Positions 12,015-62,855 of a DNA stretch of 64,000 nt are shown here, piece by piece. The notes beneath the pieces were generated by a model. The model worked only from the letters and a program-made list of their open reading frames with translations, did no database searches and had not been told where the DNA came from. The first letter of the stretch is position 1. Every line of letters begins with the position of its first letter. Source of the stretch: Bacteroidales bacterium Bact_19 (lineage in GTDB: Bacteria > Bacteroidota > Bacteroidia > Bacteroidales > ML635J-15); the NCBI GenBank assembly GCA_001603595.1, contig LUZK01000050.1, positions 22,115 through 86,114 on the forward strand. The letters run 5' to 3'. A program made the position numbers and the translations under genes.

Positions 12015-12932
12015 ATGAGAAAAGTTTTAATTTCGCTTGTTGTTTTGGTAACTATCCTTACTATAAATTTGTATTCACAACAGTTACCATTGTATTCACA
12101 ATACATGCTCAATGACTTTTTTATAAATCCTGCAATTGCCGGTTCTAAGCAATATTCTCCGGTTTTGCTGAGTATTCACAAACAATGGGTTGGAATTAAT
12201 GACTCTCCTTCCACCCAGACATTAAGTGGACATACAATGTTATCAAACAATAATGTTGGGTTGGGAGCGATTATTTTTAATGACGACTTTGGACCGGAAA
12301 GCCATCTCGGATTAATGGCAATTTATTCTTATCATTTCCATATTGACAGATTAAATAAAATTTCTCTTGGTCTATCTGCAATAGCTTTTCAGTATAAAAT
12401 GGATCAACGATTTTTTCATTTAACAGTTTATGATGATCCTGCAATTACTTATATGGTGGAAAAAACTATCGTTCCCGATGCTACTTTCGGAGCTTATGCT
12501 TATGGTAAAAGATATTGGGGAGGAATTACAGCTTCTCACTTATTCCAATCAAAACTGAAAATTAACAGAAATGTTGACGAAAATAAAATGGTTCGTCACT
12601 ATTTTGCAATGGCAGGTTACAGATTTTTATTTCCAAACTCCCCACAATTCGAAATTGAACCATCTTTTTTAATGAAAACCACAGAAGTTACTCCACCTCA
12701 ATTCGATATAAACTTAAAAATATTTTATGACAAAGATTATTGGTTTGGAATGTCTATTCGTCCGGGAGATTCATTTGTTGCTTGTTTAGGATTTAAACAT
12801 AATCAATACTATTTCGGATACGCTTATGACTTCACTTTTAGCGATTTATCCGCATATACAATTGGATCTCAGGAAATAATCTTTGGAATGAATATTGGCG
12901 AAAATGTTAGAAGATCCAGATCATTTTTCTAA
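12015..12932 (+). CDS. PorP/SprF-family T9SS outer-membrane protein (paralogue 3)
   Basis: 305 aa. QQLPLYSQYMLNDFFINPAIAGS...HKQWVGINDSPSTQTLSGH. Collinear with paralogue 2 through to the C-terminal ...FSDLSAYTIGSQEIIFG. Confidence 0.9.
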   Translation: MRKVLISLVVLVTILTINLYSQQLPLYSQYMLNDFFINPAIAGSKQYSPVLLSIHKQWVGINDSPSTQTLSGHTMLSNNNVGLGAIIFNDDFGPESHLGLMAIYSYHFHIDRLNKISLGLSAIAFQYKMDQRFFHLTVYDDPAITYMVEKTIVPDATFGAYAYGKRYWGGITASHLFQSKLKINRNVDENKMVRHYFAMAGYRFLFPNSPQFEIEPSFLMKTTEVTPPQFDINLKIFYDKDYWFGMSIRPGDSFVACLGFKHNQYYFGYAYDFTFSDLSAYTIGSQEIIFGMNIGENVRRSRSFF

Positions 12933-12964
12933 ACAATCTATTAATTAGTTTTGGTTTTCGGTTT

Positions 12965-13558
12965 CTATAAATTTAGGATTTCATCAATATAGTTGAGGAT
13001 TTCTTCTTTCCCGGTTTTTTTAATAGCCGAACTCATAAACATCTTAGGTAATTCTTCCCAATTTTCCAGAAGTTCATCTGTGAAAGCTTTTACATTATCA
13101 TTAAGTTTTGATTGAGAAACTTTATCTGTTTTAGTAAATATAATACTAAATGGAATGCCATTAAATCCTAGATTATTTATAAATTCTATGTCAATTTTCT
13201 GAGGAGGAATGCGGGAATCTATTAATACAAATAAACAATGTAGATTATCTCTTTTTAATATGTAATCATTAATTAATTTTTGGAATTTTTCTCTTTGAGT
13301 TTTACTTACTTTTGCAAATCCGTAACCGGGCAAATCAACAAGATACCATGAATTATTTATTAAAAAATGAATTATTTGTTTAGTTTTTCCGGGATTTGAC
13401 GAAGTTTTTGCTAGCTTAGAATTATTCGTGAGAAAATTTATTAATGAAGACTTTCCTACATTTGAGCGTCCAATAAATGCTATTTCCTTATATTCTGTTC
13501 GAGGTGATTTTTTAAATTCATCGGTTGCAAACTTAAATTCAGCACTTTTTATAATCAT
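12965..13558 (-). CDS. engB: Ribosome-biogenesis GTPase YihA/EngB
   Basis: 197 aa with GTPase motifs in EngB order: G1 GRSNVGKSSLIN, G3 DLPGYG, G4 TKTDK. Confidence 0.9.
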   Translation of the reverse strand: MIIKSAEFKFATDEFKKSPRTEYKEIAFIGRSNVGKSSLINFLTNNSKLAKTSSNPGKTKQIIHFLINNSWYLVDLPGYGFAKVSKTQREKFQKLINDYILKRDNLHCLFVLIDSRIPPQKIDIEFINNLGFNGIPFSIIFTKTDKVSQSKLNDNVKAFTDELLENWEELPKMFMSSAIKKTGKEEILNYIDEILNL

Positions 13559-14978: not shown

Positions 14979-17399
14979 TTATTTTTTGCAAGTTTTGCAG
15001 TAAAGGTCTTTTGCTCTTGTATTAACAAAAGTTTGAACCGATAATTTATCTCCTTTAAATAATTCGCAGAAATATTTTGGATCTTCGTTTTTAATTTTTT
15101 CGAGAGCAATTAAGAAATTATTAGAATGTGTTTTGTATGGTAATTTTGAGCAAGCAGTAGCATAAGTTATATAAAATACAAGTGGTAGTTTTTCTTGACG
15201 CATAAATGGTTCTAATAAATAAATTGCAAATTGATAATCCCCTTGATTTAGGAATATACTTGCAAGTTTAAGAGCAGTTTCCCAATTAACTTTATCAATC
15301 TTTACAATTTCTTTAATTTTATCGAGGCTCCTTGTAACAATAGGATGATCAATACCCAAAGAGTCTTTATATATTGACATGATCTGGAATTGCAGTTCGA
15401 TATTTAATCTATCAACTTGTTCTACCCTTATTGGAGTGTTATATAATCTGTCAATTCGTCTTTGAAGATTGTCGTAAACTCCCTGTTTATCAAGATCACT
15501 AAGCATTACATTGCATAGAATATCATTAAAATCAACATATATGTTTTGATTATCTAATTTATATAAATCATTTATTTTTACTTGATATTCTTCATCGAGA
15601 GGATCCATGTAAATAAATTGAGTTAACCATATTTTATTCATGTTTAACCCGACAAAATCTTTTCCTTGTGGAATTCGCATCTCAGTAACAGCAGTTTCTG
15701 TATATCTGCCTTCGACAACACGCTTAAGAATATATTTCTGAATTGAAAGTGCTAAGTTTAGTTGATTAGCTGCAACAGCTTTATTGAATTGGTCAACAAC
15801 GTATTTTTGTTCTTTGCTGCCTTCGACATCGTAAGTAACCCACATCACAATATCTGCATATCTATGATTTGCGAGTAAAAATTCCATTTCTTTAGCTCTG
15901 GAGTTAACATATCTCACAGCTTCTTCGAGATTCATTGTACAAACAGCATCGTAAATTGTACCTCTTGCATCGTTTTGCAGATCTTTGAGGTTGTGTTGAG
16001 TTACAATTGAATCAACTATACTGGCATTTTGATTTTGTTCGAGTGCTTTAACAATACTTTGAGCACGTTTTTTTTGAAGTGCTGCGTTTTCAGCAATTGA
16101 TCCTTCAAGAGACGAATATGCAGTGATGAATATTTTATTGATAATAAAATCCGGTTCGTTTAGAGCAGCTAATACTGGCTTCATATCTTCCGGTTTGTAG
16201 TCGTATTTTCCTTGCTCAAAAGGAATTCTGAAACGCAATTCGGTTGAAGTTGCTGTAGGGGCATATTCCGGAACGCCGGCTGGTAATATTGTGTCAGGTA
16301 ATAAGCCAAGTTTAGGAACAAAATCATAAATCTTTTTATCCACCCAAGACTGCGGAATATTATGACAAACGGACTTATTTTTTATTATAACCAAATTTAA
16401 TTCAACATCTTCAGGACGTAAATTAACCGGTAAATTACCAAGAACTACTTCGAGTTTTGTAACTTTATTTCTTTTTCCTTCACCCTGAGCTATGTTATTT
16501 TTGTAAAGTTTTTTTGAATAAATTCTTTTTGTTAAAACACCTTGATTAACAGTTGTGTAATCAGCAATATTTTCGCCCCGGCAATTGTTAAATTGTTCTT
16601 TTTGAATGATATCAACAGCGAGTCCGTCTTTACTGTCTTTTATGAATTTGCGGAATTTTTTCAAATCATTATATTTAAAAACAATTTGCCCTTGATCGTT
16701 TATAGATAATCCGGATTGTAAGTCAACAATATTTGGCATTCTGCGTCCGGTTTTTTTACAAATGCTCTCATCGTAGGGTTTAAGACCTGATGTTTTTGTG
16801 GTAATTGGAACTGGCAATCCAGCTGTTGTAGGATTTGTAGAAGGTTTAAATGATGAATAATTTCCCATGTACATCGAAATAAAAATTTTCTTTTCGCTCT
16901 CATCAACTTTTCCGCTTACTCCAGCGAAAAAATATTTCTGGGATAATAAATCTTTCGAAAATTTTCCGGTTACCCACCTATCCATTACCTGTGAAGCAAG
17001 GGCATCGTAAGTTAAATATTCGTTTGATACCCTTATGGTCATTCGAGATACAAGTTCAGATCCTATTCCTGTGCCACCTGCGGAAATTAATCTGTCTCTA
17101 ACAGTTCTGTAAGCTCCTTTTCCTTCCAGAGATGCATCTTGCGATTCAGCCATCATAATTGCATGTTCTCTGGCAGGTTTCATGAAAAACTCATGGGCTT
17201 CAAAACCTTCGAGTCCCAATGAATCCATATACCTATTAATTCTATAAAGCATTACATCCTGAAAAAGTTTTTCATTGAAATTTTTTGGATCAATAGGATC
17301 TGTGCTGTAAGTACTGCCGTCGAAAAATACTTTTTGTGATTGTAAACTAAAACTAATTGCAGTAAATCCAATAAACAGAATAGTAAAAATTCGTCTCAT
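14979..17399 (-). CDS. Large secreted multidomain protein (weak CAP/SCP-like N-terminal region; C-terminal helical-repeat region)
   Basis: 806 aa with a signal peptide (MRRIFTILFIGFTAISFSLQSQ). Residues ~50-180 loosely follow a CAP-domain pattern (INRYMDSLGL...AREHAIMMAES...VMDRWV...YFFAGVSG). No confident family assignment for the rest. Confidence 0.4.
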   Translation of the reverse strand: MRRIFTILFIGFTAISFSLQSQKVFFDGSTYSTDPIDPKNFNEKLFQDVMLYRINRYMDSLGLEGFEAHEFFMKPAREHAIMMAESQDASLEGKGAYRTVRDRLISAGGTGIGSELVSRMTIRVSNEYLTYDALASQVMDRWVTGKFSKDLLSQKYFFAGVSGKVDESEKKIFISMYMGNYSSFKPSTNPTTAGLPVPITTKTSGLKPYDESICKKTGRRMPNIVDLQSGLSINDQGQIVFKYNDLKKFRKFIKDSKDGLAVDIIQKEQFNNCRGENIADYTTVNQGVLTKRIYSKKLYKNNIAQGEGKRNKVTKLEVVLGNLPVNLRPEDVELNLVIIKNKSVCHNIPQSWVDKKIYDFVPKLGLLPDTILPAGVPEYAPTATSTELRFRIPFEQGKYDYKPEDMKPVLAALNEPDFIINKIFITAYSSLEGSIAENAALQKKRAQSIVKALEQNQNASIVDSIVTQHNLKDLQNDARGTIYDAVCTMNLEEAVRYVNSRAKEMEFLLANHRYADIVMWVTYDVEGSKEQKYVVDQFNKAVAANQLNLALSIQKYILKRVVEGRYTETAVTEMRIPQGKDFVGLNMNKIWLTQFIYMDPLDEEYQVKINDLYKLDNQNIYVDFNDILCNVMLSDLDKQGVYDNLQRRIDRLYNTPIRVEQVDRLNIELQFQIMSIYKDSLGIDHPIVTRSLDKIKEIVKIDKVNWETALKLASIFLNQGDYQFAIYLLEPFMRQEKLPLVFYITYATACSKLPYKTHSNNFLIALEKIKNEDPKYFCELFKGDKLSVQTFVNTRAKDLYCKTCKK

Positions 17400-17499
17400 T
17401 TGGTTTGCTTTATTAGGTTAATATTATTTTTGCCAAAATAATATTAATTTTTAATTGTAACCAATAATTTTCAAAAATTGAATTAACTTTTTTTTAACT

Positions 17500-17874
17500 A
17501 TGACTTTAAATATTCGAATAGACAAGTTTTTATGGGCTGTAAGAATTTATAAAACTCGTAGTTTGTCGAGCGAAAAATGTCGAAAATCTCAAGTTTTGAT
17601 AAATGGAGTAGAAGTAAAACCATCGAGGATTGTGAAGGAAGGAGATATTATAGAAATTAAAGTTTCACCTATAGTTAGAAAGTATCAGGTTTTAAAACTA
17701 TTAGAAAATAGAGTAGGAGCAAAACTTGTTTCAGAATATATTATTGAGCTTACTCCCGAAACTGAATTAAAAAAATTATCTAAAAAAAAGATTAATTTTG
17801 TAAGTTTTAAACCGGGTAGCGGACGACCTACCAAAAGAGATCGAAGAATGATTATTAAATTTTTGAGGGATTAA
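17500..17874 (+). CDS. S4-domain RNA-binding protein (Hsp15/HslR-like)
   Basis: 124 aa. IRIDKFLWAVRIYKTRSLSSEKCRKSQVLINGVEVKPSRIVKEGDIIEI matches the S4 alpha-L motif arrangement. Basic C-terminal tail. Confidence 0.8.
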   Translation: MTLNIRIDKFLWAVRIYKTRSLSSEKCRKSQVLINGVEVKPSRIVKEGDIIEIKVSPIVRKYQVLKLLENRVGAKLVSEYIIELTPETELKKLSKKKINFVSFKPGSGRPTKRDRRMIIKFLRD

Positions 17875-49846: not shown

Positions 49847-52800
49847 CTAGTTTATGTTTATTATAATTGCTTTTTGTTGACTACCATCCATTAAAACAGT
49901 AATCGGGTTATTGAATTTTACATGTTTAAAATATTGTAAAGTTTCTACTGTTTCAGCATTATTAAGTATCTCCCAATTGATAAAGTCAAATTCATTAAAT
50001 TGTTTTACCGAAAAATACCCCACGCTCATTGCTGTTACGTTATGAAAAAAATGAGAACCTAAAGAAGCATCTAGTGGAAAATTTGGTAACTCCATTTCGA
50101 CAATTACTTTTGCTGCCGAAATTTGCGACCAAACTACAGGAATTCCAATAAACTTATCACGAGATCCCCAGCGTCCGGGACCTATTAAAATATATTTTCG
50201 GTTTGTTTTTAAAAATTCTCTGTTAATTTTATCAATTTCTTCGGCCATTTGTTCGGTTTTAAGATTGTCGAAAACTTCCGGCATAACAAAAATAACATCG
50301 TATATTCCTTCAATTTTACCATTCCCCATACTTTTCGATGATCGTAATAAAGTGCTTTCTTTTGAGTATTTTTCAAATTCAACTTTAAAATCATTTTGAC
50401 TTCCCAAAAGCGGTTTTATTTGTAAAAGATAAAAAGATGGAAGATTGTGGGGTGGATCTTTATCGAGATTTACGGCAAATTCTATTTCAACAGGAGTCCC
50501 CATGGCTTCTTTTACAATACATAGCACTACTTGTAAGGTTTGGGCTAGAGCAATGTATTCGTATTTTAAAATGTCGGCAAAATTAAGAACTCTTGGACCT
50601 GTTTTGTTTATTCCGGCTTCGATTGTGTCGTTATAAGGGTCATAAGTTGAAGCAAGGTGTTTTATGGTTCCATGCATTTCAGCATCGTACAAATCAAGTC
50701 GCATTAGTCCGGCATTTTCGCCTTCGAGTAAATCCGGTTCAGATTTTTTTAAATTTATTGCATAAAACTCTGATTGCGAATTGTTAACAAGGTCTTTGAG
50801 GCTTGTTATATCAATTTTTGGATATTGTGGAGAAAACCTGTATGTTTTTTCTCCTTCAACAACATATTGACCTAATCCTAAGGCAATTACTGCGAAACCT
50901 TCCTCAGGTTTCATATAACCTACAGGGTAAAAATTATGTGATTGAGCTGTTCCACTAATATGTGGATAATAATAATCCTGATGTTGCTTTCCAACAACTT
51001 CCTGAATAACTACTGCCATTTTTTCTTCTTCAATCCGGTAGTTTATTGCTTCGAAGTACAATCTTGCATTTGGAGAAAAAACGGAGGCATATACTAACTT
51101 TATTGCCGTTTCAAGTTGTTTCAGACGTACATTGTCGTCCGGATGATTATTGGGAAGTAAATAAGTCTCGAATACTCCCGAAAAAGGTTGGCTTAAAGAA
51201 TCTTCCAACAAACTCGATGATCTTATGGCAAGAGGCTTTTTAATTGATTTAATAAACGCTTTAAGTTTTTTACTTAGCTCGAAAGACAAATTTGCCTTAA
51301 CAAACTTGGCTTTTATAATATTGTAATCATTTTCTTCATGTATAACCTGATAGAGTTTGTTTTTTTGCATAAATATATCAAACTCGTCGGTACCGATAAT
51401 GCTTGTTGCTGGAGTACGAATAATAATTCCCGGAATAACATTCGAAAAGTCGTAATTATAAATTAGTGTATTTACAAAAGCCAATCCTCTGCCTTTGCCG
51501 CCCAAGGCTCCGCTGTTAAGCATTACAATGTTGCTTTCTTCCTTTACAATGTCGGGGTCGAACTGAACAATTTTTCCTTTTGCTTTTTCAATTTTATGTT
51601 TCTGAATGATTTTTAAGAGAAATTCTCGAATTTCTTCGGGATTTTTAAAGTCTGTTATTTTATAAGGTTTAATTTTTCTGGCAATTTCAATTTCACCTCT
51701 AGCCATCATCCATAGAGAGAAATGGTTTTTTAGAGCATGAAAAGTTAAAGAATCCTCAGGAATTTGATATAATAAAGTTTCAAATTCTTTAAGGTTTTTA
51801 GCTACTGCAAGTTGTTGACCTTCGTTAGATCTAAAAACAAAATTTCCAAAACCCAAATGAAATGAAATGAAATATTTTATGTCTTGAATCAAGCTTTCTG
51901 AAAGTTTATTAAGGAACATAGCTCCCAATTCAGATGCTTTTTTAATGTTTTCTTGTTCAGAGGATTGCATCAAAATTGGAATAACCGAATTATATGATTG
52001 AATGTATTTTACAAGTTCAAAACCTGCATTGGGATCTTCTTTTTTGTCTTTTGGAAATCTTATATCTGTGATAACACAAACTATTATATCTTGATACATA
52101 TTATAATAATGTATAGCTTCTTCGTATGTGCAGGCATGTAAAACTTTTGGTCTAGCTCTTAACTTTAATACTTTGTACAATTCATCGGTATTAACTTCTT
52201 CGATAAGTTTTTGTGTTTGTTCCAGAATAGCACTATAAACTGCCGGTAAATATCTGCTATAATATTTTGGAGAATCTTCAACTACAAGAACAGCTTGAAC
52301 AACTCCAAGTTTGGCATCATTTTCAATATTAACTTTATCTTCTAGAAGTTTTACCATTGCAAAAAATATTTTGGAATCGCCATTCCAAACAAATACTTTG
52401 TCAAAACTTGATTTATAAAAATCGTATTTTTTGAGATATTGGATGTCATTATCATTGTTAAGGAGTAAATAGGTTGATATGTAATTATGATGTTCCTTTA
52501 TTTTTTCGCAAACAACAAAAGGAAATTTTTTGTCTGAACCCATCATAATTATTATCAAATCAAAATGACGATGTTTTAATAAATACAAAGCTTCGTTTTC
52601 GCTCGAACAACCTGTAATTCTAGGTAAAGAAGTAAGATTTAATTTATAATATTCACCAAGGATATGTTCAGTAAATCTTCCTTCTTTTTCAATGCTGAAA
52701 GCGTCGTAAAGATTAGCAATAAGTAATATTTCTTTTACTTTAAAAGGCATCAAGTCGTGGTATATATCTCTTTCATAATAGTCTTTGTTCAAAAATCTTT

Positions 52801-53317
52801 GTAATAGTTGCCTGCTATATTGTTGAGCTGACTGCTGAATATTGGAAATGTCAATTTTTGGTTCTTCATAATTTATAATTTCTTTGATTTTTGCACTGTT
52901 GATGAAGTTAGAAATTAGTGTGGCAATATTATTAATTAAGTTTCTTTCTTCAATAAGGAAAGGACCTTCATCGCTTTCTTGAGGGAATTCTTTTGTGTAA
53001 TATACATTAATTTGTCCTTGCTTTCCTTCAGCTGTGATAATTTCTGCTGTTTGTTTCCATTTAGTTTCTAGAAAAAAATTTGATACATATTTTTTGCCTT
53101 CATATTCAATTGAACAAACTGTATATTCAGAATGTTGATAAGCATTGGTCATGAGATTACAAATTTTTTGCAAAGTTTCGTTTATGCTTAATCCCTTTTT
53201 AATTAATTCTGTGGTTTTATTTATACAGTTTAATTCTTTTAACCGTTCCTGATTTTCTTTTAATAGCTTATCGTAATTTATTTTCTGATTATTATTTTCA
53301 TTCAGGTTCATAATCAT
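49847..53317 (-). CDS. Multidomain signalling-type protein: N-terminal sensory module + pseudo-receiver + receiver (REC) + PPDK_N-type PEP/pyruvate-binding ATP-grasp domain
   Basis: 1156 aa. N-terminal sensor-like block (LKELNCINKTTELI...GPFLIEERNLINNIATLI). REC-like region (VLVVEDSPKYY...VITDIRFP...IPILMQSS). ATP-grasp region with GALGGKGRGLAFVN and LAIRSSSLLEDS. Confidence 0.65.
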   Translation of the reverse strand: MIMNLNENNNQKINYDKLLKENQERLKELNCINKTTELIKKGLSINETLQKICNLMTNAYQHSEYTVCSIEYEGKKYVSNFFLETKWKQTAEIITAEGKQGQINVYYTKEFPQESDEGPFLIEERNLINNIATLISNFINSAKIKEIINYEEPKIDISNIQQSAQQYSRQLLQRFLNKDYYERDIYHDLMPFKVKEILLIANLYDAFSIEKEGRFTEHILGEYYKLNLTSLPRITGCSSENEALYLLKHRHFDLIIIMMGSDKKFPFVVCEKIKEHHNYISTYLLLNNDNDIQYLKKYDFYKSSFDKVFVWNGDSKIFFAMVKLLEDKVNIENDAKLGVVQAVLVVEDSPKYYSRYLPAVYSAILEQTQKLIEEVNTDELYKVLKLRARPKVLHACTYEEAIHYYNMYQDIIVCVITDIRFPKDKKEDPNAGFELVKYIQSYNSVIPILMQSSEQENIKKASELGAMFLNKLSESLIQDIKYFISFHLGFGNFVFRSNEGQQLAVAKNLKEFETLLYQIPEDSLTFHALKNHFSLWMMARGEIEIARKIKPYKITDFKNPEEIREFLLKIIQKHKIEKAKGKIVQFDPDIVKEESNIVMLNSGALGGKGRGLAFVNTLIYNYDFSNVIPGIIIRTPATSIIGTDEFDIFMQKNKLYQVIHEENDYNIIKAKFVKANLSFELSKKLKAFIKSIKKPLAIRSSSLLEDSLSQPFSGVFETYLLPNNHPDDNVRLKQLETAIKLVYASVFSPNARLYFEAINYRIEEEKMAVVIQEVVGKQHQDYYYPHISGTAQSHNFYPVGYMKPEEGFAVIALGLGQYVVEGEKTYRFSPQYPKIDITSLKDLVNNSQSEFYAINLKKSEPDLLEGENAGLMRLDLYDAEMHGTIKHLASTYDPYNDTIEAGINKTGPRVLNFADILKYEYIALAQTLQVVLCIVKEAMGTPVEIEFAVNLDKDPPHNLPSFYLLQIKPLLGSQNDFKVEFEKYSKESTLLRSSKSMGNGKIEGIYDVIFVMPEVFDNLKTEQMAEEIDKINREFLKTNRKYILIGPGRWGSRDKFIGIPVVWSQISAAKVIVEMELPNFPLDASLGSHFFHNVTAMSVGYFSVKQFNEFDFINWEILNNAETVETLQYFKHVKFNNPITVLMDGSQQKAIIININ

Positions 53318-53491: not shown

Positions 53492-54865
<1,374 letters not shown>

Positions 54866-54873
54866 TTATTTTT

Positions 54874-54904
54874 AAAAGAGGGCAGTTTCTGTCCTCTTTT
54901 TTTT
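54874..54904 (+). terminator. Rho-independent terminator after gdhA
   Basis: 12-bp stem with one G-U pair, aaaagagggcag (54874-54885) pairing with ctgtcctctttt (54889-54900), with a 3-nt loop followed by more T residues. Confidence 0.6.
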
Positions 54905-54927
54905 ATTTTTGTAAAAAAATCATTATT

Positions 54928-55446
54928 ATGCGTATTCAAAGAATTGCAATAGAAAATCGTGAAGATAATCTCGAAGAAGTTGATTTATCTCAACTCGACA
55001 GTGTGATTGAAAAATTTAAAAACAAAAAAGGAATAACTATTCCTGTTTTGCAGGCAGTACAACAAATATATGGCTATTTGCCAGCGAAAGCCTTTGATTT
55101 ACTTAGTGAAAAAACAGGAATTAAAAAAAGTGAACTTTACGGGGTTGCTACTTTTTATGCACAGTTTAGATTAAAACCCGTAGGCAAACATATCGTAAAA
55201 GTCTGTCATGGTACAGCTTGTCATGTACAGGGAGCCAATATAATTAGCGAAAGCATTCTAGAAGCTCTTAAAATAGCCGATGGGGAAACTACCACTGATG
55301 GTTTTTATACTGTGGAGTCAGTGGCATGTTTAGGATGTTGTTCATTAGCACCTGTAATTATGATTGATGACGAAGTTTTTGGAAAACTCAGCGGCAAAAC
55401 TGCTGTTAATGTTATTAAAGAATATCAGTTAAAACACAATAATTAA
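54928..55446 (+). CDS. NuoE/HydC-like thioredoxin-fold [2Fe-2S] subunit (Bfu 'C'-type subunit)
   Basis: 172 aa with the cluster ligand pattern VCHGTACHV ... VACLGCCSLAPV. Confidence 0.85.
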   Translation: MRIQRIAIENREDNLEEVDLSQLDSVIEKFKNKKGITIPVLQAVQQIYGYLPAKAFDLLSEKTGIKKSELYGVATFYAQFRLKPVGKHIVKVCHGTACHVQGANIISESILEALKIADGETTTDGFYTVESVACLGCCSLAPVIMIDDEVFGKLSGKTAVNVIKEYQLKHNN

Positions 55447-55459
55447 TTCATTTTTTACT

Positions 55460-57238
55460 ATGGAACAAATTAAAATTCTTGTCGGGTTAGCCAGTTGCGG
55501 AATTGCAGCAGGGGCTAACAAAATTTATGAAAAAATTTCTGCTATTAAAGAACAAGAAAAATTAAATTTTGAACTTACAAAAACCGGTTGTGTAGGGATG
55601 TGTTATCGGGAACCACTCGTTGAAGTTATTGATGATACGGGTTCTTATTTGTACGGCGAAATTGACGATGTTAGAATTACCGAAATAATTGAAAAGCACA
55701 TTAAAACGGGAGAACCTGTTAAAGAATATATTGTAAAAACCGACCTTTTCGAAAACGAAGACGACTCCTACTGTAAAAATCAGGTAAAAATTGCTTTACG
55801 TAATTGTGGAGTAATAAATCCTGAGGTAATCGAAGAATACGAAAATGCCGGAGGTTATTTGGCAGTAAAAAAGATATTAAATAATAACATTTCTCAGGAA
55901 ACGGTTATACAAACTATAATTGACAGTGGTTTACGTGGCAGGGGAGGAGGTGGATTTCCCACGGGTTTAAAATGGAAATTTGCATTCAACAGTAAATCCG
56001 ACGAAAAATATATAATTTGTAATGCCGACGAAGGTGACCCCGGAGCTTTTATGGATAGATCAGTATTGGAAGGTGATCCCCATTCAGTTCTAGAAGGTAT
56101 GACCATAGCTGCTTATGCAATAGGAGCTACTCAGGGAGTAATTTACTGTAGAGCCGAATACCCTTTAGCAATTAAGCGTTTGAATATTGCAATAGACCAG
56201 TCTCGTGCTAAGGGCTATTTAGGCAAAGATATTTACGGTAAAAAAGGTTGGAATTTCGATATTTATGTAAAAGAAGGTGCCGGAGCTTTTGTTTGCGGAG
56301 AAGAAACTGCTCTGATGGCATCAGTAGAAGGTCGCAGAGGTATGCCTCGCAAGCGTCCTCCATTTCCTGCAGTGTCAGGATTATGGAAAAAACCTACAAA
56401 TATTAACAACGTTGAAACTTTTGCCAATGTGCCATATATAGTTTTAAACGGAGCACAATCATTTAATAAGTATGGAACTGAAAAATCAAAAGGAACAAAA
56501 GTTTTTGCCTTAACCGGAAAAATTAAACGAGGAGGTCTTGTGGAAGTTCCGATGGGAATATCAATAAAAGATATAATTTTCAAACATGGTGGTGGTATTC
56601 AGGGAGATAAAAAATTTAAAGCTGTTCAATTGGGCGGACCTTCAGGTGGTTGTATCCCAGATTATTTAGCAGAAACACCTGTAGATTATGATTCCATTTT
56701 AGCTACCGGTGCTATAATGGGATCCGGTGGTATGGTAGTAATGGATGAAACTACCTGTATGGTTGATATGGCTCGATTCTTTTTGGATTTTACGCAAAAA
56801 GAATCATGCGGAAAATGTACTTTCTGTCGTATTGGTACCAAGCGTATGCTCGAAATACTTACCAGAATTTGTGAAGGAGAAGGCAAAGAAGGCGATATTG
56901 AACTGCTTGAAGAATTGGCATATCAGATCAAAGACAGTTCGCTTTGTGGGCTTGGTCAAACAGCTCCAAATCCAGTACTTACAACGATAAAATATTTCAG
57001 AAATGAGTATGAGGCTCATATCCGCGATAAAAAATGCCCAGCAAAGAGTTGTAAAAAACTTATTACATACACAGTAAATCCTGAAAAATGTACAGGTTGT
57101 ACTGTATGTGCAAAAAATTGTCCTGTAAATGCTATATCTGGAGAAAGAAAACAGGTGCATTTTATTGATCAGGAAGTATGTATTAAATGTGGTGTTTGCT
57201 TCAGCAAGTGTAAGTTTGAGGCTATTAATCTTTCGTAA
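55460..57238 (+). CDS. NuoF/HydB-like NAD(H)- and FMN-binding iron-sulfur subunit (Bfu 'B'-type subunit)
   Basis: 592 aa. N-terminal [2Fe-2S] module (LASCGIAAG...GCVGMCYREP). FMN/NADH site (GLRGRGGGGFPTGLKWKF, CNADEGDPGAFMDR). N3-type cluster ESCGKCTFCR. C-terminal 2x[4Fe-4S] (CTGCTVCAKNCP, CIKCGVCFSKC). Confidence 0.9.
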   Translation: MEQIKILVGLASCGIAAGANKIYEKISAIKEQEKLNFELTKTGCVGMCYREPLVEVIDDTGSYLYGEIDDVRITEIIEKHIKTGEPVKEYIVKTDLFENEDDSYCKNQVKIALRNCGVINPEVIEEYENAGGYLAVKKILNNNISQETVIQTIIDSGLRGRGGGGFPTGLKWKFAFNSKSDEKYIICNADEGDPGAFMDRSVLEGDPHSVLEGMTIAAYAIGATQGVIYCRAEYPLAIKRLNIAIDQSRAKGYLGKDIYGKKGWNFDIYVKEGAGAFVCGEETALMASVEGRRGMPRKRPPFPAVSGLWKKPTNINNVETFANVPYIVLNGAQSFNKYGTEKSKGTKVFALTGKIKRGGLVEVPMGISIKDIIFKHGGGIQGDKKFKAVQLGGPSGGCIPDYLAETPVDYDSILATGAIMGSGGMVVMDETTCMVDMARFFLDFTQKESCGKCTFCRIGTKRMLEILTRICEGEGKEGDIELLEELAYQIKDSSLCGLGQTAPNPVLTTIKYFRNEYEAHIRDKKCPAKSCKKLITYTVNPEKCTGCTVCAKNCPVNAISGERKQVHFIDQEVCIKCGVCFSKCKFEAINLS

Positions 57239-57249
57239 AAGTAAAAGTT

Positions 57250-60200
57250 ATGAATCAGATAAATGTTATATTAAACGGCAAACCAGTAATAGGATACGAT
57301 GGAGAATCAATTCTGGAATTAGCCTCCAGATACGGAATAACAATTCCTACTTTATGTCATGATCCTCGACTTGAACCGTATTCATCTTGTTATGTTTGTG
57401 TAGTTGAAATTGAGGGTATGCGAGGACTTCAACCTTCGTGTTCAACAAAGATTAACGAAGGGATGAAAATCACTACCGATAACCAAAAAATTTACAAAGC
57501 CAGACAAACAGCTTTGAATTTGTTGGTAAGTAATCACTATGCAGATTGCGTTGCTCCATGTAAACAAACCTGTCCGGCCGGAGTTGATGTACAGGGATAT
57601 ATTTCCTTGATTGAAAAAGGACTCTATAGCGAAGCTGTAGCTTTAATAAAAGAAGTTAATCCATTGCCTGCAGTTTGTGGTCGTGTTTGTGTACGACCAT
57701 GTGAAGTTGCTTGTCGCCGCAATTTAATGGAGGAAGGAGCCGGTGTAGGCATAGATTATCTTAAAAGATTTGCAAGCGATAAAGATCTCGAATCATCTGA
57801 AAGGTACCGACCAATTCCAAAACCAGCCAGCGGCAAGCGTGTTGCTATTATCGGGGCAGGTCCGGGAGGTTTATCCGCTGCATGGTTTTTACAGCTTCAA
57901 GGACATTATTGCGATATTTACGAAGCTAATCCAAAAGCGGGTGGATGGTTAAGGTATGGTATTCCTGAATATCGTTTGCCTAATGAAATTATAGATAAAG
58001 AAGTTAATGCTATACTTGAATTAGGATTATCTCAAATTCATTATAATAAAAAACTTGGCGAAAATCTTAGTTATAAAAATCTGAAGGATAATTATGATGC
58101 CGTAATTCTTGCAATTGGTTCGCAGGGTAGTACTCCTATAGGTTGCGAAGGGGATGACGCTATTAATGTTTTTGGTGGAGTTGAGTTTTTACGCAATATG
58201 GAAATAACAGGACAAAGATATGATTTTAGAGGTAAAACTGTTGTAGTAATTGGAGGTGGTAATACAGCCATGGATTGTTGTCGTACTTCGATACGTTGCC
58301 ATGCCGATAATGTTTATGTTTTGTACCGCCGGACCGAAAAAGAAATGCCTGCGAATCCAATTGAAATTCACGAATCAAAACTCGAAGGAGTGGAGTATAT
58401 GTTTCTTACTGCTCCCAAAAGAATAAATAAAGACCAGGAAGGTAAGGTAAAATCTATTACCTGCATAAAAATGGAGTTGGGAGAACCTGATGCTTCGGGT
58501 CGTAGAAGACCAATTCCAATTGAAGGAAGTGATTTCGATATCCAGGTTGATTATATACTTGCTGCAATTGGACAAAATACTGTTGCCCCTTTTATTGATG
58601 ATATTAATAATTTTTCGGAAAATGGAAAAGTTATGCTAAATAAATGGGGAACATTTGATGTTAATCCAAAAAATTTGCAAACCGGAAATCCTAAAATTTT
58701 TGCTTGCGGTGATGCAGTTAAAGGACCTGCTACAGTTATCGAAGCTATACAACAAGCTCGCAGAGCTGCTCTGAGTTGTCACCAATTCCTTACAGGTCAG
58801 GAAATAAAAGATGAAGATTACGAATTTATTAGCAAGAAAGATAACTTTAAAAAACAAGAACCAAAAGATTATAAACAAAAATATGTTTCTAAAAAAAGGC
58901 ATGAAATGCCCACACTTCTTCCTGAAGAACGTAAAAACTTCAAAGAAGTTGAATTGGGCTACGAAAATGATGAAATTGCAGTTCAGGAAGCATCAAGATG
59001 TCTTGAATGTGGATGTGTTGAATATTACACCTGTGATTTGAAAAAATATGCCACTGAATATCAAGCTTCGCAGGAAAATTTGAAAGGTGATTTTAAACAA
59101 TTTGACGTAAAATTTGATCATCCATTTATTGAAATTGATAATAACAAATGTATATTATGTGCTCGTTGCGTAAGGATTTGTAGCGAGGTCGTTGGTGCTT
59201 ATGCTCTAGGGCTGGTAAATCGCGGATTTGATACATTTGTTGCTCCAAGTTTAGGAAAATCGTTATTAGAAACAGAATGCGAATCCTGCGGAATGTGTAT
59301 ATCGGCATGTCCTACTGCTGCTATTTCTGAAAATGTTACATTTAAACCAGGTCCGGTTAGAACTGAACCTATAAATTCAATATGTAATTATTGTTCGGTC
59401 GGTTGTGAATTGGAATACCAAGTAAAGAAAAATTTTGTCTGGAGAGTTAATGGAGCTTTTGGTCATATAAATCAAGATTCAAACATTTGTGCTAAAGCAA
59501 AATTCGGATATAATTATATCAATGATAAAAGCCGAATTACTCAACCCATGATCAAAGAAAACGGAAAATGGAAAAATATATCTTTTGATGAGGCTTTTAA
59601 AATTATATTCAATAAATTAAAAGAAAAGTCCGCTGGCGAAAAAGCACTGTTTGCCGGAGCAAGACTATCTAATGAAGAAATGTTTTTAATTTCTAAGTTA
59701 TATGAAATTACCGTTGGTGATAAAAATCTTTCTTCATTCTCATATCTCGGAAGAGGAAATGCTTTTGCAGAAAATAGCCTAAAAAATGTATCTTTTAACG
59801 AAATTCCAGAAACAAAAAGAATTTTTATACTTGGAACAGAAATTAATTACGAACATCCCGTAGTTGGGTATATGGTATTTAATCATCAATTTAAAAACAA
59901 TGTTCCTGTAGTTTTAATAACAGAAGATAAAAATAATTCTATTTCAAAAAAGGCTGACAAAACAATAGTAATTTCATCGTATTATAATTTTATCAAGGCT
60001 GCTAATTACTATGTTGTATCAAATAATCTGCAAAATCAAATTTATCTTGATCAACACTACAAAGAAAGTTTTTATAAATATCGAGATAATATTCTTGGCT
60101 CAAATTATGATGAACTTATAAAAAAAGCTGGGGTAAGTAGTTATGATATTGAGGATTTTGTTAAAGAATATAACAATAATCACAACTCTGTAATAATATT

Positions 60201-60912
60201 TAGTGAAAAAAATTTGGATGCCGAGACTTGTAGTGAAATCATGAACCTTGCAATTCTAACGGGAAAACTTGGTAAGTCTGCTGCAGGAATTATTTTATTA
60301 AAAGAAAAGAACAATTCCGAAGGATTATTTAATATGGGAATTGTTGAAGGAACTGAAAAATTTAATGTTATCAGTAATTATGGTGAAAAAAAATTACTCG
60401 ATAAAATCAAACTAAGGAAAATTTCCTCTTGGTTTATTTTTGGTGAAGATCCTGTTGGAACAGCCATTAATAAAATTGAAATAAATGAATGGTTTGATGA
60501 GGCTGAATTTATAATGGTGCAGGATTATTTCATGACCGAAACCGCTCAGAAAGCAAATCTGATTTTGCCTGCTTCTTTACCTTACGAAACCGGCGGATCA
60601 TTTACAAACACTCAAAGACAAATTTTAGAATTTGAAAAAGCATTGGATGCTCCTTTTGAGTATTGTAATGTTGGTCAACTATTATCTGTACTTAAACTTG
60701 CAGGAATAAACGGAATGGATTCAATTGATGAGGTTAAATCAGAATTTTTCAAACAATTCGGTAATGTAGGAGTAAATTCCAATCAACTTAGAATTACTGA
60801 AGAATCTGTTAACATAAAATTGTTTGAAAATGCAGCAGACTATATCAGTAACAAATTTGAAAAAGATTTTAAGTCAAAACTAAAAAAACAGATTGAATAT
60901 GAAAGAGTTTAA
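57250..60912 (+). CDS. Chimeric 1220-aa iron-sulfur flavoprotein: [2Fe-2S] ferredoxin + GltD/NfnB-like NADPH:FAD module + NuoG-type Fe-S domains + molybdopterin-oxidoreductase-like (apparently degenerate) domain
   Basis: aa 1-80: NuoG/Fdh-type [2Fe-2S] (CHDPRLEPYSSCYVCVVEI...PSC). aa ~90-520: GltD-like (CVAPCKQTCPAGVDV, CGRVCVRPCEVACRR, RVAIIGAGPGGLSAA, VVVIGGGNTAMDC, FACGDA). Then HPFIEIDNNKCILCARCVRIC and CESCGMCISACP. Then the Mo-pterin-type 4Fe-4S motif CNYCSVGC and ~500 aa in which I cannot find the R-x-C/U-H active-site motif. Confidence 0.75.
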   Translation: MNQINVILNGKPVIGYDGESILELASRYGITIPTLCHDPRLEPYSSCYVCVVEIEGMRGLQPSCSTKINEGMKITTDNQKIYKARQTALNLLVSNHYADCVAPCKQTCPAGVDVQGYISLIEKGLYSEAVALIKEVNPLPAVCGRVCVRPCEVACRRNLMEEGAGVGIDYLKRFASDKDLESSERYRPIPKPASGKRVAIIGAGPGGLSAAWFLQLQGHYCDIYEANPKAGGWLRYGIPEYRLPNEIIDKEVNAILELGLSQIHYNKKLGENLSYKNLKDNYDAVILAIGSQGSTPIGCEGDDAINVFGGVEFLRNMEITGQRYDFRGKTVVVIGGGNTAMDCCRTSIRCHADNVYVLYRRTEKEMPANPIEIHESKLEGVEYMFLTAPKRINKDQEGKVKSITCIKMELGEPDASGRRRPIPIEGSDFDIQVDYILAAIGQNTVAPFIDDINNFSENGKVMLNKWGTFDVNPKNLQTGNPKIFACGDAVKGPATVIEAIQQARRAALSCHQFLTGQEIKDEDYEFISKKDNFKKQEPKDYKQKYVSKKRHEMPTLLPEERKNFKEVELGYENDEIAVQEASRCLECGCVEYYTCDLKKYATEYQASQENLKGDFKQFDVKFDHPFIEIDNNKCILCARCVRICSEVVGAYALGLVNRGFDTFVAPSLGKSLLETECESCGMCISACPTAAISENVTFKPGPVRTEPINSICNYCSVGCELEYQVKKNFVWRVNGAFGHINQDSNICAKAKFGYNYINDKSRITQPMIKENGKWKNISFDEAFKIIFNKLKEKSAGEKALFAGARLSNEEMFLISKLYEITVGDKNLSSFSYLGRGNAFAENSLKNVSFNEIPETKRIFILGTEINYEHPVVGYMVFNHQFKNNVPVVLITEDKNNSISKKADKTIVISSYYNFIKAANYYVVSNNLQNQIYLDQHYKESFYKYRDNILGSNYDELIKKAGVSSYDIEDFVKEYNNNHNSVIIFSEKNLDAETCSEIMNLAILTGKLGKSAAGIILLKEKNNSEGLFNMGIVEGTEKFNVISNYGEKKLLDKIKLRKISSWFIFGEDPVGTAINKIEINEWFDEAEFIMVQDYFMTETAQKANLILPASLPYETGGSFTNTQRQILEFEKALDAPFEYCNVGQLLSVLKLAGINGMDSIDEVKSEFFKQFGNVGVNSNQLRITEESVNIKLFENAADYISNKFEKDFKSKLKKQIEYERV

Positions 60913-61354
60913 GACAATTGATGATATTCTGGATTTCGCCATTGATATGGAACAAAAATCCATTGACTTTTACAAAGATCTTTCTAATAGAGCAAAGTCA
61001 TCAGAAATGAAAGAGACCTTTTTAAGTTTTGTTGAGGAAGAAATAAAGCATAAAGCAAAACTAACAAAAGTAAAAGAAGAAAAGATTTTCACACTGGGGG
61101 AAGAAAAAGTGAGAGAATTAAATATTTCCGAATACGTAGAGCGAACAGAACCTTCACCGGACATGAGTTATCAGGATGCCTTGATATTGGCAATGAAACG
61201 TGAGAAAGCTGCTTTCAGACTTTATACTAAATTAGCTTCTCAAACTTCAAATCCGGAATTGGAAAACTTGTTGCTATCATTGGCACAAGAAGAATCTAAA
61301 CATAAACTTATGTTTGAGATTGAATATGATGAAGTAATATTGAGGGAAAATTAA
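60893..61354 (+). CDS. Rubrerythrin/ferritin-like di-iron four-helix-bundle protein (no rubredoxin domain)
   Basis: 153 aa; the start may be the ATG at 60899 (MKEF...). Two E...ExxH pairs (DMEQKSIDFY...EEEIKH; KREKAAFRLY...QEESKH). Overlaps the end of the 1220-aa gene by 14-20 nt. Confidence 0.7.
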   Translation: MNMKEFKTIDDILDFAIDMEQKSIDFYKDLSNRAKSSEMKETFLSFVEEEIKHKAKLTKVKEEKIFTLGEEKVRELNISEYVERTEPSPDMSYQDALILAMKREKAAFRLYTKLASQTSNPELENLLLSLAQEESKHKLMFEIEYDEVILREN

Positions 61355-61356
61355 GA

Positions 61357-61391
61357 AAAAGAGACTGTCTTAATATTTGACAGTCTCTTTT
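61357..61391. terminator. Bidirectional rho-independent terminator between convergent genes
   Basis: Perfect 13-bp stem, aaaagagactgtc (61357-61369) pairing with gacagtctctttt (61379-61391), with a 9-nt loop. Confidence 0.75.
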
Positions 61392-61397
61392 GTGATA

Positions 61398-62855
61398 TTA
61401 TTTGTTTGGAATGTTTTTTAGAATATCAACCAAGTGCTTGTACCACATTTCTACTGTTTTAATTTCAATTCTTTCGTCTGGAGAATGAACTCCACGAAGT
61501 GTTGGTCCGAATGATATCATATCAAGATACGGATATTTTTCGAGAAATAATCCACATTCAAGACCGGCATGAATTGCTCTGATGGCGGGTTTTTTGCCAA
61601 ACAATCTTTCATAAGAAGCAGATGCTATTTCCAGAATTTCTGATTTTGGATTTGGTGCCCAACCGGGATATCCATCACCGGATTCAACTTCAGCTTCCGC
61701 AAGCTCAAATACAGCTTTTACCATATTGTTAATATCCGTTTTGCCTGATTCAAGAGAACTACGCTGGCTGGTGGTAATTGTGATTTTGACATCATTGAAT
61801 TTAACAGCTGCAAGATTTGTTGAAGTTTCAACAAGTCCTGGCATAGTTGTACTCCATGCATGTACTCCGTGTGGACAAGCATATAAGGAATATGTTAGGT
61901 TTTTCTGAGTGTTTTTGTCAATAATAAATTCAGGCAGCGATACTTTTTCAATTTGAATATTCAAGTTTGGTTCAGTAATTTCGATTTCTTTAATGATTTG
62001 ATTCTTTAAAGTTTCAAAGTCTTTTATTAAGTTTTCTTTATCCGTTTCTGCAACAGTAAAAACAAATTCTGCTTCGCGAGGAATAGCATTTCGTTTGTTT
62101 CCACCATCGAAGTTTGACAGTCTGATATTATATTTTTTTGTGAATAAAAACAGAAATCTGTTTGCGATTTTATTTGAATTTCCATATCCTTTGTGAATTT
62201 CATCCCCGCTGTGTCCACCTTTTAGACCATTAACAGTTATTTTAAAAGCACAACTTTTAGCCGGAACAGCTTCTTTAGTGAATTTGAAATAAGCAGTAGT
62301 ATCAATTCCTCCGGCACAGCCTATAAAAATTTCTCCTTCGTCTTCTGAATCAAGGTTTAGCAAAATAGTTCCTTCGAAAAATCCGGGTTCGAGTTCAAAT
62401 GCTCCGGTAAGTCCGGTTTCTTCGTCAACGGTAAACAAACATTCAATAGGCCCGTGTTGAACTGAAGGGTCTGTAAGAATTGCCATCTGAGCAGCCATTC
62501 CGATGCCGTCGTCAGCTCCGAGAGTAGTCCCTCTTGCTTTTACCCATTCACTGTCAACGTAGGCAACTATAGGGTCGTTGTCAAAATCAATTTTTGTGTC
62601 TTTATTTGCTTCGCAGACCATATCCATGTGGCTTTGCAGAACAACAGTTTTTTTATTTTCCATTCCTGGTGTTGCAGGTTTCTTTATAAGTACATTACCG
62701 GCCTGATCTCGTTTTGCTTCCAGATTATGTTCTTTTGCAAAATCTAAAAGGAATTTAATGATTTTTTCTTCTTTTTTACTGGGTCTCGGAACTTGTGTGA
62801 TTTGGTAAAAATATTTCCAAACATTTTTTGGTTGAAGATTTAATATATCGCTCAT
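61398..62855 (-). CDS. pepD: Aminoacyl-histidine dipeptidase (M20C, PepD)
   Basis: 485 aa. LQPKNVWKYFYQITQVPRPSKKEEKI N-terminus, HMDMV, GADDGIGMA, and the EEG/DSEDEGE region typical of PepD. Confidence 0.9.
   Translation of the reverse strand: MSDILNLQPKNVWKYFYQITQVPRPSKKEEKIIKFLLDFAKEHNLEAKRDQAGNVLIKKPATPGMENKKTVVLQSHMDMVCEANKDTKIDFDNDPIVAYVDSEWVKARGTTLGADDGIGMAAQMAILTDPSVQHGPIECLFTVDEETGLTGAFELEPGFFEGTILLNLDSEDEGEIFIGCAGGIDTTAYFKFTKEAVPAKSCAFKITVNGLKGGHSGDEIHKGYGNSNKIANRFLFLFTKKYNIRLSNFDGGNKRNAIPREAEFVFTVAETDKENLIKDFETLKNQIIKEIEITEPNLNIQIEKVSLPEFIIDKNTQKNLTYSLYACPHGVHAWSTTMPGLVETSTNLAAVKFNDVKITITTSQRSSLESGKTDINNMVKAVFELAEAEVESGDGYPGWAPNPKSEILEIASASYERLFGKKPAIRAIHAGLECGLFLEKYPYLDMISFGPTLRGVHSPDERIEIKTVEMWYKHLVDILKNIPNK

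Follow-up and report, generated by a model that had tools for sequence, protein, structure and literature searches.

A predicted Bfu-type electron-bifurcating transhydrogenase operon with a conserved di-iron protein gene in an uncultured Bacteroidales bacterium

Electron-bifurcating transhydrogenases linking ferredoxin, NAD(H) and NADP(H) are known in a conventional and a Bfu-type (Sporomusa-type) form, and we compare both here with an operon carried by a 64,000-nucleotide stretch (the window) of contig LUZK01000050.1 from the uncultured Bacteroidales bacterium Bact_19. In conventional NfnAB (or NfnSL; Thermotoga maritima and Pyrococcus furiosus, 4YLF and 5JCA), bifurcation takes place at the FAD of a GltD-like subunit of ~460 amino acids (aa), which has a Glu-ligated cluster and a small FNR-like partner. 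The Nfn-Bfu enzymes carry out the same overall reaction and have been purified, assayed and solved (PMC7483475, PMC10482914, PMC11829005, PMC12018979); here, in contrast, Lys serves as a cluster ligand, bifurcation falls to a HydBC-like core and, in the solved enzymes, the FAD does not bifurcate. As published, their large subunit (StnC/NfnA) has a [2Fe-2S] domain at its N-terminus, then a GltD-like insert that forms the NADPH/FAD module, followed by NuoG-like clusters and an inactive FdhF-like domain (PMC10482914), through which the solved enzymes assemble into tetramers (PMC10482914, PMC11829005). Further marks of the family are tight coupling of the NADPH:NAD+/ferredoxin oxidoreductase reaction and a quaternary structure of four heterotrimers with D2 symmetry. 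Schut et al. (2022, PMC9304861) had already counted Bacteroidetes as Nfn-Bfu hosts.

The operon and the modules of its large subunit are laid out as follows:

54928..55446, + strand: nfnC (stnA in Sporomusa), NuoE/HydC-like [2Fe-2S] subunit, 172 aa (PF01257, PDB matches)
55460..57238, + strand: nfnB (stnB), HydB-type NuoF-like FMN/NAD(H) subunit, 592 aa (domains, PDB matches, tree)
57250..60912, + strand: nfnA (stnC), large subunit, 1220 aa (full-length match to 9bov_A and 8oh5_C)
57250..57543, + strand: nfnA residues 1-98, N-terminal [2Fe-2S] domain (PF13510)
57544..58794, + strand: nfnA residues 99-515, inserted GltD/NfnB-like NADPH-FAD module with two [4Fe-4S] clusters (PF14691, PF07992, alignment to 9bov_A and 8oh5_C)
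58987..59349, + strand: nfnA residues ~580-700, NuoG-type Fe-S region (PF22117, Fer4_7, TIGR01973 NuoG match)
59362..60765, + strand: nfnA residues ~705-1172, formate-dehydrogenase-like domain without a catalytic site (alignment to 1aa6_A and 7qv7_S)
60899..61354, + strand: fourth gene, ferritin/rubrerythrin-like di-iron protein, 151 aa (PF02915 at 1.3e-14)

The first three open reading frames (ORFs) are separated by exactly 13 and 11 nt, and the ATG of the fourth, at 60899, lies inside the last 14 nt of nfnA. A sequence-only reading of this DNA had described three consecutive genes with these gaps, encoding NuoE-like, NuoF-like and GltD-containing (1220 aa) proteins, which the ORF positions and domains bear out; its end coordinate, 61354, took in the fourth ORF, which its description left out.

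Gene order, domains, ligand conservation, family placement and genomic distribution together indicate that this operon very probably (~88%) encodes a Bfu-type electron-bifurcating transhydrogenase. The best PDB matches of all three subunits are the same three solved complexes (9BOV/9BP5, 8OH5/8OH9 and, as the third, archaeal NfnABC, 9N5U/9N5V), with E-values of 5e-231, 9e-262 and 6e-53 against the NfnABC chains, far beyond chance. NfnA scores 772.9 bits to 9bov_A (residues 4-1184), 754.1 to 8oh5_C and 599.2 to 9n5u; NfnB scores 872.9 (9BOV), 859.8 (8OH5) and 848.5 bits (9N5U), while the best HydB proteins reach at most 758.6; and NfnC best matches 9bov_C (182.6 bits, 5.7e-53), 8oh5_A (165.7) and 9n5u_C (158.3). 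NfnA shares homology with the large subunit of conventional NfnAB in its GltD-like module (305.8 bits to 4ylf_B), but the locus has no FNR-like partner and its match to the conventional NfnB model TIGR01316 (307 bits) is below the cut-off of 472. The full-length matches to three solved, assayed enzymes and the retained ligands thus uphold the sequence-only call of a Bfu/Stn-type NADH/ferredoxin:NADP+ transhydrogenase, although not its label of a candidate, since the family has already been purified, assayed and solved: the window enzyme is a further member of a well-characterised family and not a new enzyme.

Compared with NfnABC of Caldicellulosiruptor saccharolyticus (Csac; 9BOV/9BP5, Li et al. 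2025, PMC11829005), the window encodes the same three subunits, each with an unchanged order of domains. The NfnB proteins share 65% identity, the ligands of the A7 cluster (three Cys and Lys), the three Cys and Glu of the NfnB N-terminus and the NADH loops are alike, and the pterin site is incomplete in both. The Csac enzyme differs in having Cys114, where Bacteroidota have Val114 (in the window) and an extra invariant Cys143; moreover, the window operon adds the di-iron gene, Bacteroidota copies are often found 3' of gdhA, and the host is presumably a mesophile. StnABC of Sporomusa ovata (Sov; 8OH5/8OH9; Kremp 2020, PMC7483475; Kumar 2023, PMC10482914) has the same order of a nuoE-like gene, a nuoF-like gene and a GltD/NuoG fusion; its K170, R239 and all cluster ligands are kept in the window, the FdhF-like domain is catalytically inactive in both, and both types exclude conventional Nfn (in acetogens there, in Bacteroidales here). 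The stn genes differ in lying 3' of a Wood-Ljungdahl cluster, being followed by pabAB and having no di-iron gene (PMC7483475), and S. ovata is an acetogen whereas the window host is a fermentative member of the Bacteroidales with PFOR and Rnf.

The two smaller subunits carry the expected cofactor sites, and their ligands are all invariant (34-35 orthologues). NfnC is a 2Fe-2S_thioredx/NuoE protein (PF01257 at 1.2e-47) in which C93, C98, C134, C137 and C138, including the [2Fe-2S] Cys, are unchanged in 34/34 sequences. NfnB consists of ~120 N-terminal residues followed by Complex1_51K, SLBB, NADH_4Fe-4S and a C-terminal 2x[4Fe-4S] ferredoxin domain. The N-terminal thioredoxin-like domain provides the ligands C13, C44, C48 and E51; this three-Cys-plus-Glu site holds Zn in the Caldicellulosiruptor structure and was modelled as [2Fe-2S] in that of Sporomusa (PMC11829005), and which of the two metals it binds in the window protein is uncertain. 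The NADH/FMN loops GLRGRGGGGFP and TGAIMGSGG (loop roles: PMC11829005), the ligands of the B1 [4Fe-4S] cluster (C450, C453, C456, C496) and a His/Cys Zn site (H520, C526, C531; motif AHIRDKKCPAKSCK, identical to Sporomusa) are kept, as are both CxxCxxCxxxC motifs of the C-terminal domain (C544-C554 and C574-C584), which binds ferredoxin in the solved enzymes.

To place NfnB, a maximum-likelihood (ML) tree was built from the window protein, orthologues from Bacteroidota and Ignavibacteria, five PDB references (transcribed from alignments) and the four other NuoF-like paralogues of the genome. Window NfnB falls within a Bacteroidota-Ignavibacteria clade (100/100) whose sister group is formed by Csac NfnB and Sov StnB (86/85), with archaeal NfnB branching next (86/91); NiFe-HydB, FeFe-HydB and the genome's own HydB lie outside this Nfn clade. 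As the sequence-only reading had proposed to check by phylogeny, NfnB thus clusters with the B subunits of characterised Nfn-type enzymes (clade 53 in Schut 2022) and not with HydB, at moderate support (86/91). Its identity is 64-65% in comparison with Csac NfnB or Sov StnB, and 58-61% in comparison with HydB proteins. The B subunit thus discriminates modestly, so the family assignment leans mainly on the A subunit. At one locus of a Bacteroidales MAG (metagenome-assembled genome; L062, 8220-9977), the NuoF-like and NuoE-like proteins beside an ordinary nfnA are 61% and 49% identical, respectively, and the NuoF-like protein lies outside the Nfn clade; the BC core may have been swapped there.

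NfnA has the architecture published for StnC/NfnA, in the order Fer2_4 (3-78), Fer4_20 and Pyr_redox_2 (99-503, the GltD module), Fer4_Nqo3 (625-692), Molybdop_Fe4S4 (709-759) and Molybdopterin (762-1137); a Pfam/NCBIfam search of the protein found no Molydop_binding (PF01568) and no H-cluster domain (PF02906). Conservation was scored over an alignment of 64 Bacteroidota orthologues. The N-terminal [2Fe-2S] ligands (C36, C47, C50, C64), the cluster ligands of the GltD module (Cys 100, 104, 108, 143, 147, 151 and 155, and Lys172) and the Cys of the NuoG-type region (C584, C587, C589, C595; C634-C644; C677-C687) are unchanged in all 64. In the Csac and Sov enzymes, the cluster next to the FAD is held by three Cys and a strictly conserved Lys170 (PMC11829005, PMC10482914), and C108, C147, C151 and K172 align to their Cys108, Cys147, Cys151 and Lys170. 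The NADPH/FAD site is made up of GAGPGG (GxGxxG) at 202-207, R242 (equivalent to StnC R239) and the 2'-phosphate motif YRR at 359-361. The formate-dehydrogenase-like domain keeps its own [4Fe-4S] ligands (C712, C715, C719, C747), with Gly834/Arg835 at the positions of SeCys140/His141 of E. coli FdhH and Lys at that of Arg333. Because the alignment to FdhH stops near its residue 483 of 715 and PF01568 is absent, the protein has no final pterin-binding domain, a gap also reported for Csac NfnA. This C-terminal half is therefore probably dead in catalysis and, by analogy with the solved enzymes, may serve assembly. The NuoE, NuoF/HydB and GltD modules expected by the sequence-only reading were all recovered; it had correctly seen the GltD module and the C-terminal 2x[4Fe-4S] module of NfnB, its N-terminal [2Fe-2S] is only possibly right given the three Cys and Glu (Zn in Csac), and the dead FdhA/NuoG-like half of NfnA went unmentioned.

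One position sets the Bacteroidota proteins apart. In Sporomusa StnC, Cys114 is close to the Lys-ligated cluster and has been proposed to act with Lys170; a C114A mutant retains 50% activity. This residue is Val or Ile in 64/64 Bacteroidota NfnA (Val114 in the window, codon 57589-57591), a substitution that Kumar et al. had noted in two homologues (PMC10482914), and the extra Cys143 (codon 57676-57678), invariant in the same 64, may be a relocated ligand or a tuning residue.

By homology to solved enzymes, NADP(H) would bind at the FAD of the GltD-like module, and single electrons would run through the Lys-ligated [4Fe-4S] and the Fe-S chain of NfnA to NfnB and NfnC. These two would form the FMN / [4Fe-4S] / [2Fe-2S] 'flavobicluster', the predicted site of bifurcation or confurcation, with one branch leading to NAD(H) at the FMN and the other to ferredoxin at the C-terminal 2x[4Fe-4S] domain of NfnB; the formate-dehydrogenase-like half would take no part in catalysis and would serve assembly. 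We infer activity and stoichiometry on the same grounds, and the net reaction would be Fd(red, 2 e-) + NADH + 2 NADP+ + H+ <-> Fd(ox) + NAD+ + 2 NADPH.

We next asked what else the genome (98.75% complete) holds for these electrons. No conventional NfnAB was found in it, the outcome that the sequence-only reading had named as support for the assigned role, and nfnA is its only GltD/NfnB-type gene; Zwf, PntB and GltB were not found in the genome either. PFOR (1897 bits) and RnfC (562 bits) are present, which makes reduced ferredoxin and NADH available, and since GltB is missing, ammonium must enter via glutamate dehydrogenase (GDH). Together with the operon, four further NuoE/NuoF-like pairs give the genome five flavin/Fe-S NAD(H) modules. 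Contig C181 encodes an FeFe hydrogenase of the HydABC type, C79 another FeFe hydrogenase whose NuoF-like subunit is short (388 aa), C7 a HydA-like protein with degenerate H-cluster motifs and C145 an FdhA with a Cys-His active site.

Across the order, we sampled 301 Bacteroidales genomes evenly (~148 families), with association statistics that ignore phylogeny. Full-length NfnA was found in 114 of them (~38%), and TIGR01316 scored over its cut-off in 31/114 genomes with NfnA vs 134/187 without (odds ratio 0.15, Fisher p = 4e-14). Over this cut-off the model also catches a ~600-aa GltD-type protein, and the cross-tabulation was therefore made both raw and filtered by frame size: at least 19 of the 31 are this ~600-aa gene, often near the Bfu operon, which leaves a conventional-size NfnB in 12/114. 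A similar displacement was described in acetogens by Kremp et al. (PMC7483475) and in Thermococcaceae by Schut et al. (PMC9304861), and the matching exclusion of the two types argues for their functional equivalence. Uncultured Bacteroidales MAGs are the closest named relatives, the best being 90% identical in NfnA with identical synteny, and the cultured Perlabentimonas gracilis also has it. Both genomes of the same genus (G090 and G219; complete) have no Bfu type and a fused conventional NfnAB instead.

Some of these genomes hold further variants. The ~600-aa GltD/NfnB-type gene often lies within a few kb of the Bfu operon (G098:C3:135220-137040, G279:C197:2149-3979, G203:C25:14347-16170, G071:C57:389-2426), at L038, L073 and L079 5' of nfnC, and it is sometimes directly 5' of, or fused to, a member of the di-iron protein family. 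In G095 (C451:1428-5075), a ~1370-aa frame adjoining an ordinary nfnA seemingly joins a GltD module, a distant di-iron-like segment (31% identical) and a formate-dehydrogenase-like domain, possibly a further fusion variant. G090 and G219 are without the entire gdhA-nfnCBA-di-iron block and have a single GDH, 52% identical to the window gdhA; this GDH has no comparable neighbours, and the empty-site comparison does not separate gain from loss of the block. The block has its nearest copies in other families (72% identity) or in a single MAG (90%), and it may be laterally mobile.

The operon is flanked by the following features:

53510..54865, + strand: gdhA, NADP-specific glutamate dehydrogenase, 451 aa (NF006929 equivalog, ELFV_dehydrog domains), a neighbour and not a subunit
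54874..54900, + strand: intrinsic-terminator-like hairpin 3' of gdhA, 12-bp stem then T-run (hairpin scan and sequence reading)
54904..54911, + strand: weak candidate promoter of the operon, TATTTTTG, 17 nt 5' of the nfnC ATG (read from the sequence)
61357..61391, no strand assigned: 13-bp perfect inverted repeat aaaagagactgtc / gacagtctctttt with a 9-nt loop (read from the sequence)
61398-62855, - strand: pepD, dipeptidase gene, convergent on the operon

The candidate promoter fits TAnnTTTG, which, from general knowledge of Bacteroides promoters, we take to be the Bacteroidota -7 consensus; a sigma-70 promoter scan, a model unsuited to Bacteroidota, gave 45 sites vs 39.8 +/- 6.2 in shuffles, with no excess. 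The inverted repeat at 61357-61391, which was found by reading because the hairpin scan admitted loops up to 8 nt, is likely a bidirectional terminator common to the operon and pepD. The gdhA product exceeds the cut-off of the NADP-specific GDH equivalog NF006929 (785.9 bits, cut-off 536), and both this assignment and the terminator agree with the sequence-only reading, which placed an NADP-specific gdhA with its own terminator immediately 5' of the operon. A gdhA directly 5' of the nfn operon and on the same strand recurs in 8/27 related loci with enough upstream sequence, among them that of Perlabentimonas gracilis (L045), which has the full gdhA-nfnCBA-di-iron arrangement. This recurrent adjacency supports a common NADP(H) pool for the two enzymes, and GDH is the likely NADP(H) partner of Nfn-Bfu; of the link to gdhA drawn earlier, the shared pool is supported and the NADPH-consuming direction is not readable from sequence.

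We then turned to the fourth gene, predicted to be translationally coupled to nfnA. Its 151-aa product is ferritin/rubrerythrin-like without a rubredoxin domain, and E18, E48, H51, E102, E132 and H135 are invariant among homologues, forming the E...ExxH pattern of a di-iron site twice. An AF2 (AlphaFold2) model gives a four-helix bundle (pLDDT 90) with 2fzf and 1vjx as best folds; a PDB sequence search returned just the same two, uncharacterised structural-genomics proteins (2FZF and 1VJX), and the fold search added nothing functional. The gene lies directly 3' of nfnA in 22/29 and 22/35 related loci, one Ignavibacteria genome included, and the family is present in 94/114 genomes with nfnA vs 10/187 without (odds ratio 83). 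The same family is fused to a GltD-type gene in G098 (657-aa frame) and lies beside GltD-type genes in G279, G203 and G071, and the NCBIfam model NF009413 describes an NfnA-NfnB-ferritin fusion. A related layout is the Rub-Bfu predicted by Schut et al. 2022 (Type 4 Bfu; PMC9304861), where rubrerythrin replaces BfuA next to BfuBC and, as in the window, a rubrerythrin-family gene ends the Bfu operon; the window differs in having BfuA (NfnA), in placing the di-iron gene after NfnA and not BfuB, and in having no rubredoxin domain, and both are known from genes alone. A di-iron gene alongside a BfuA-containing Bfu operon is an arrangement not described in the literature examined; its lack outside Bacteroidota and Ignavibacteriota is taken solely from the published S. 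ovata gene order. The 151-aa protein may be an electron acceptor (a peroxide or oxygen reductase) or an iron/assembly factor.

The mosaic nature of NfnA, with its GltD homology, its weak N-terminal similarity to HydA and its equally weak C-terminal similarity to FdhA, could also point to a bifurcating formate dehydrogenase or hydrogenase, or to the electron-input half of a glutamate synthase, but with the catalytic motifs, pterin domain IV, the H-cluster domain and GltB all missing this is refuted at the sequence level and we regard it as practically excluded. A formate dehydrogenase is ruled out by Gly834/Arg835 where Sec/Cys-His would be required, by Lys at the position of Arg333 and by the lack of pterin domain IV (alignments to FdhH and HDCR FdhF); the C-terminal half scores 231.6 bits against the FdhA model TIGR01591, below the cut-off of 666, and the genome's real FdhA, as a positive control, carries CTRLCHAS. 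A bifurcating [FeFe]-hydrogenase HydABC is ruled out since PF02906 is absent and only the N-terminal Fe-S part matches HydA, the two real FeFe hydrogenases of the genome (C181 and C79) carrying the H-cluster motifs. Domain search, alignments and these controls therefore concur with the sequence-only reading, which saw no hydrogenase or formate dehydrogenase motif. Glutamate synthase GltBD is ruled out, GltB (PF01645) being undetected in this nearly complete genome. An NADPH-dependent enzyme that does not bifurcate and reduces some other acceptor, such as sulfur or polysulfide, would be conceivable because NsoC of Thermococcus litoralis NsoABC, first reported to act in this way, is a close homologue of StnC (PMC10482914, PMC7483475); it is very improbable, as Kremp et al. 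argue that Nso is probably of the Nfn type itself (PMC7483475), the window keeps the whole BfuBC bifurcating core with its ferredoxin-binding domain, and the anticorrelation with conventional Nfn points to a common function. Several points nevertheless weigh against a Bfu-type transhydrogenase that supplies NADPH to GDH. The identity of NfnB to Nfn references barely exceeds that to HydB and the support of the Nfn clade is moderate; Val/Ile114 and Cys143 may mean that redox tuning of the FAD-proximal cluster differs in Bacteroidota, whose Nfn-Bfu members are known from genes alone; the association statistics take no account of phylogeny; gdhA ends in its own terminator and adjoins the operon in only ~30% of loci; and GDH and Nfn are both reversible, with a flow direction that sequence does not set.

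As to direction, PFOR and Rnf without conventional NfnAB, PntAB, Zwf or glutamate synthase make Nfn-Bfu most likely the main NADPH source, and we lean somewhat towards it feeding the adjacent NADP-GDH for ammonium assimilation. The flow could possibly be the reverse, a catabolic NADP-GDH oxidising glutamate and NfnABC bifurcating the NADPH electrons to ferredoxin and NAD+, as in peptide fermentation with disposal through hydrogenases and Rnf. In vitro, the Csac, Tsib and Sov enzymes are assayed as NADPH oxidisers, and Tsib lives by peptide fermentation (PMC11829005, PMC9304861); peptide fermenters use Nfn-Bfu for NADPH oxidation. In the window, the dipeptidase gene pepD is convergent with the operon, and the genome has two FeFe hydrogenases, one of the HydABC type (C181) and the other on C79, as well as Rnf and two GDH paralogues. 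In a genome without Zwf, PntB, conventional Nfn and GOGAT (glutamate synthase), however, Nfn-Bfu and NADP-GDH are the obvious anabolic route to NADPH and glutamate. Neither direction precludes the other, and the flow may switch with the growth substrate. A further idea extends the transhydrogenase reading: the di-iron protein would take electrons from NfnA, at the dead-end Fe-S branch of the formate-dehydrogenase-like domain or at the GltD module, reduce H2O2 or O2 and so shield the Fe-S-rich enzyme. Predicted translational coupling, the strong co-occurrence with nfnA and the invariant di-iron ligands favour it, as do the relatives beside or fused to other GltD-type genes (G098, G279, G203, G071, NF009413), the predicted Rub-Bfu, though an A-less arrangement (PMC9304861), and the A2-A4-A5 cluster branch of NfnA, which was given no function in the solved structure (PMC11829005). 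It is nonetheless rather unlikely: physical interaction with NfnABC is hypothetical, the closest solved folds are uncharacterised, 20/114 nfnA genomes have no di-iron gene, the purified Firmicute and archaeal enzymes work without such a protein, and an iron/assembly chaperone for a ~40-Fe complex or an unrelated stress protein is equally possible.

Another protein recurs near these genes. In the window, a 1156-aa receiver + PPDK_N (ATP-grasp) protein (49847-53317, minus strand) is divergent from gdhA, and in many Bacteroidales loci this protein and a ~38%-identical paralogue lie on the flanks of the nfn operon, also when gdhA does not adjoin it (L042, L045, L046, L049, L053, L054, L060, L064, L067, L073, L074, L077, L079, L092). 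A 997-aa paralogue lies 3' of the second gdhA of the genome (contig C133, 17945-20938), where a di-iron paralogue (12850-13293, 147 aa, 41% identical) is found ~3 kb 5' of that GDH (16340-17674, 66% identical to gdhA), so that the trio of GDH, di-iron protein and PPDK_N protein occurs twice in the window genome. The receiver-PPDK_N protein appears to be a conserved, as yet unstudied partner of the GDH and Nfn genes.

The core finding adds annotation, not discovery, to a family known in atomic detail whose hosts already included Bacteroidetes. Within the sample, ~38% of Bacteroidales genomes use the Bfu-type enzyme, mostly in place of conventional NfnAB, and in the window genome it is apparently the sole dedicated link from ferredoxin and NADH to NADPH, beside the only ammonium-assimilating enzyme. 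Automatic names such as 'glutamate synthase small subunit', 'molybdopterin oxidoreductase' or 'NADH-quinone oxidoreductase subunit E/F' are misleading for these genes. The conserved di-iron gene and the recurrent gdhA neighbour are the only features newly reported here. Along with the receiver-PPDK_N neighbours they form the lead from this locus, and the tight di-iron association could explain what the dead-end Fe-S branch of the solved structures does. We tentatively propose that Nfn-Bfu of Bacteroidota and Ignavibacteriota might be a four-component system in which the di-iron protein is a dissociable fourth subunit drawing electrons from NfnA (A4-A5 branch or GltD module). If true, the transhydrogenase would have a safety valve of its own for reducing peroxide or oxygen and would be intermediate in kind between Nfn-Bfu and the predicted Rub-Bfu, as a hybrid of both; this would also assign a function to a large, uncharacterised di-iron family (COG1633-like; 2FZF, 1VJX) that is recurrently paired or fused with GltD-type NADPH modules.

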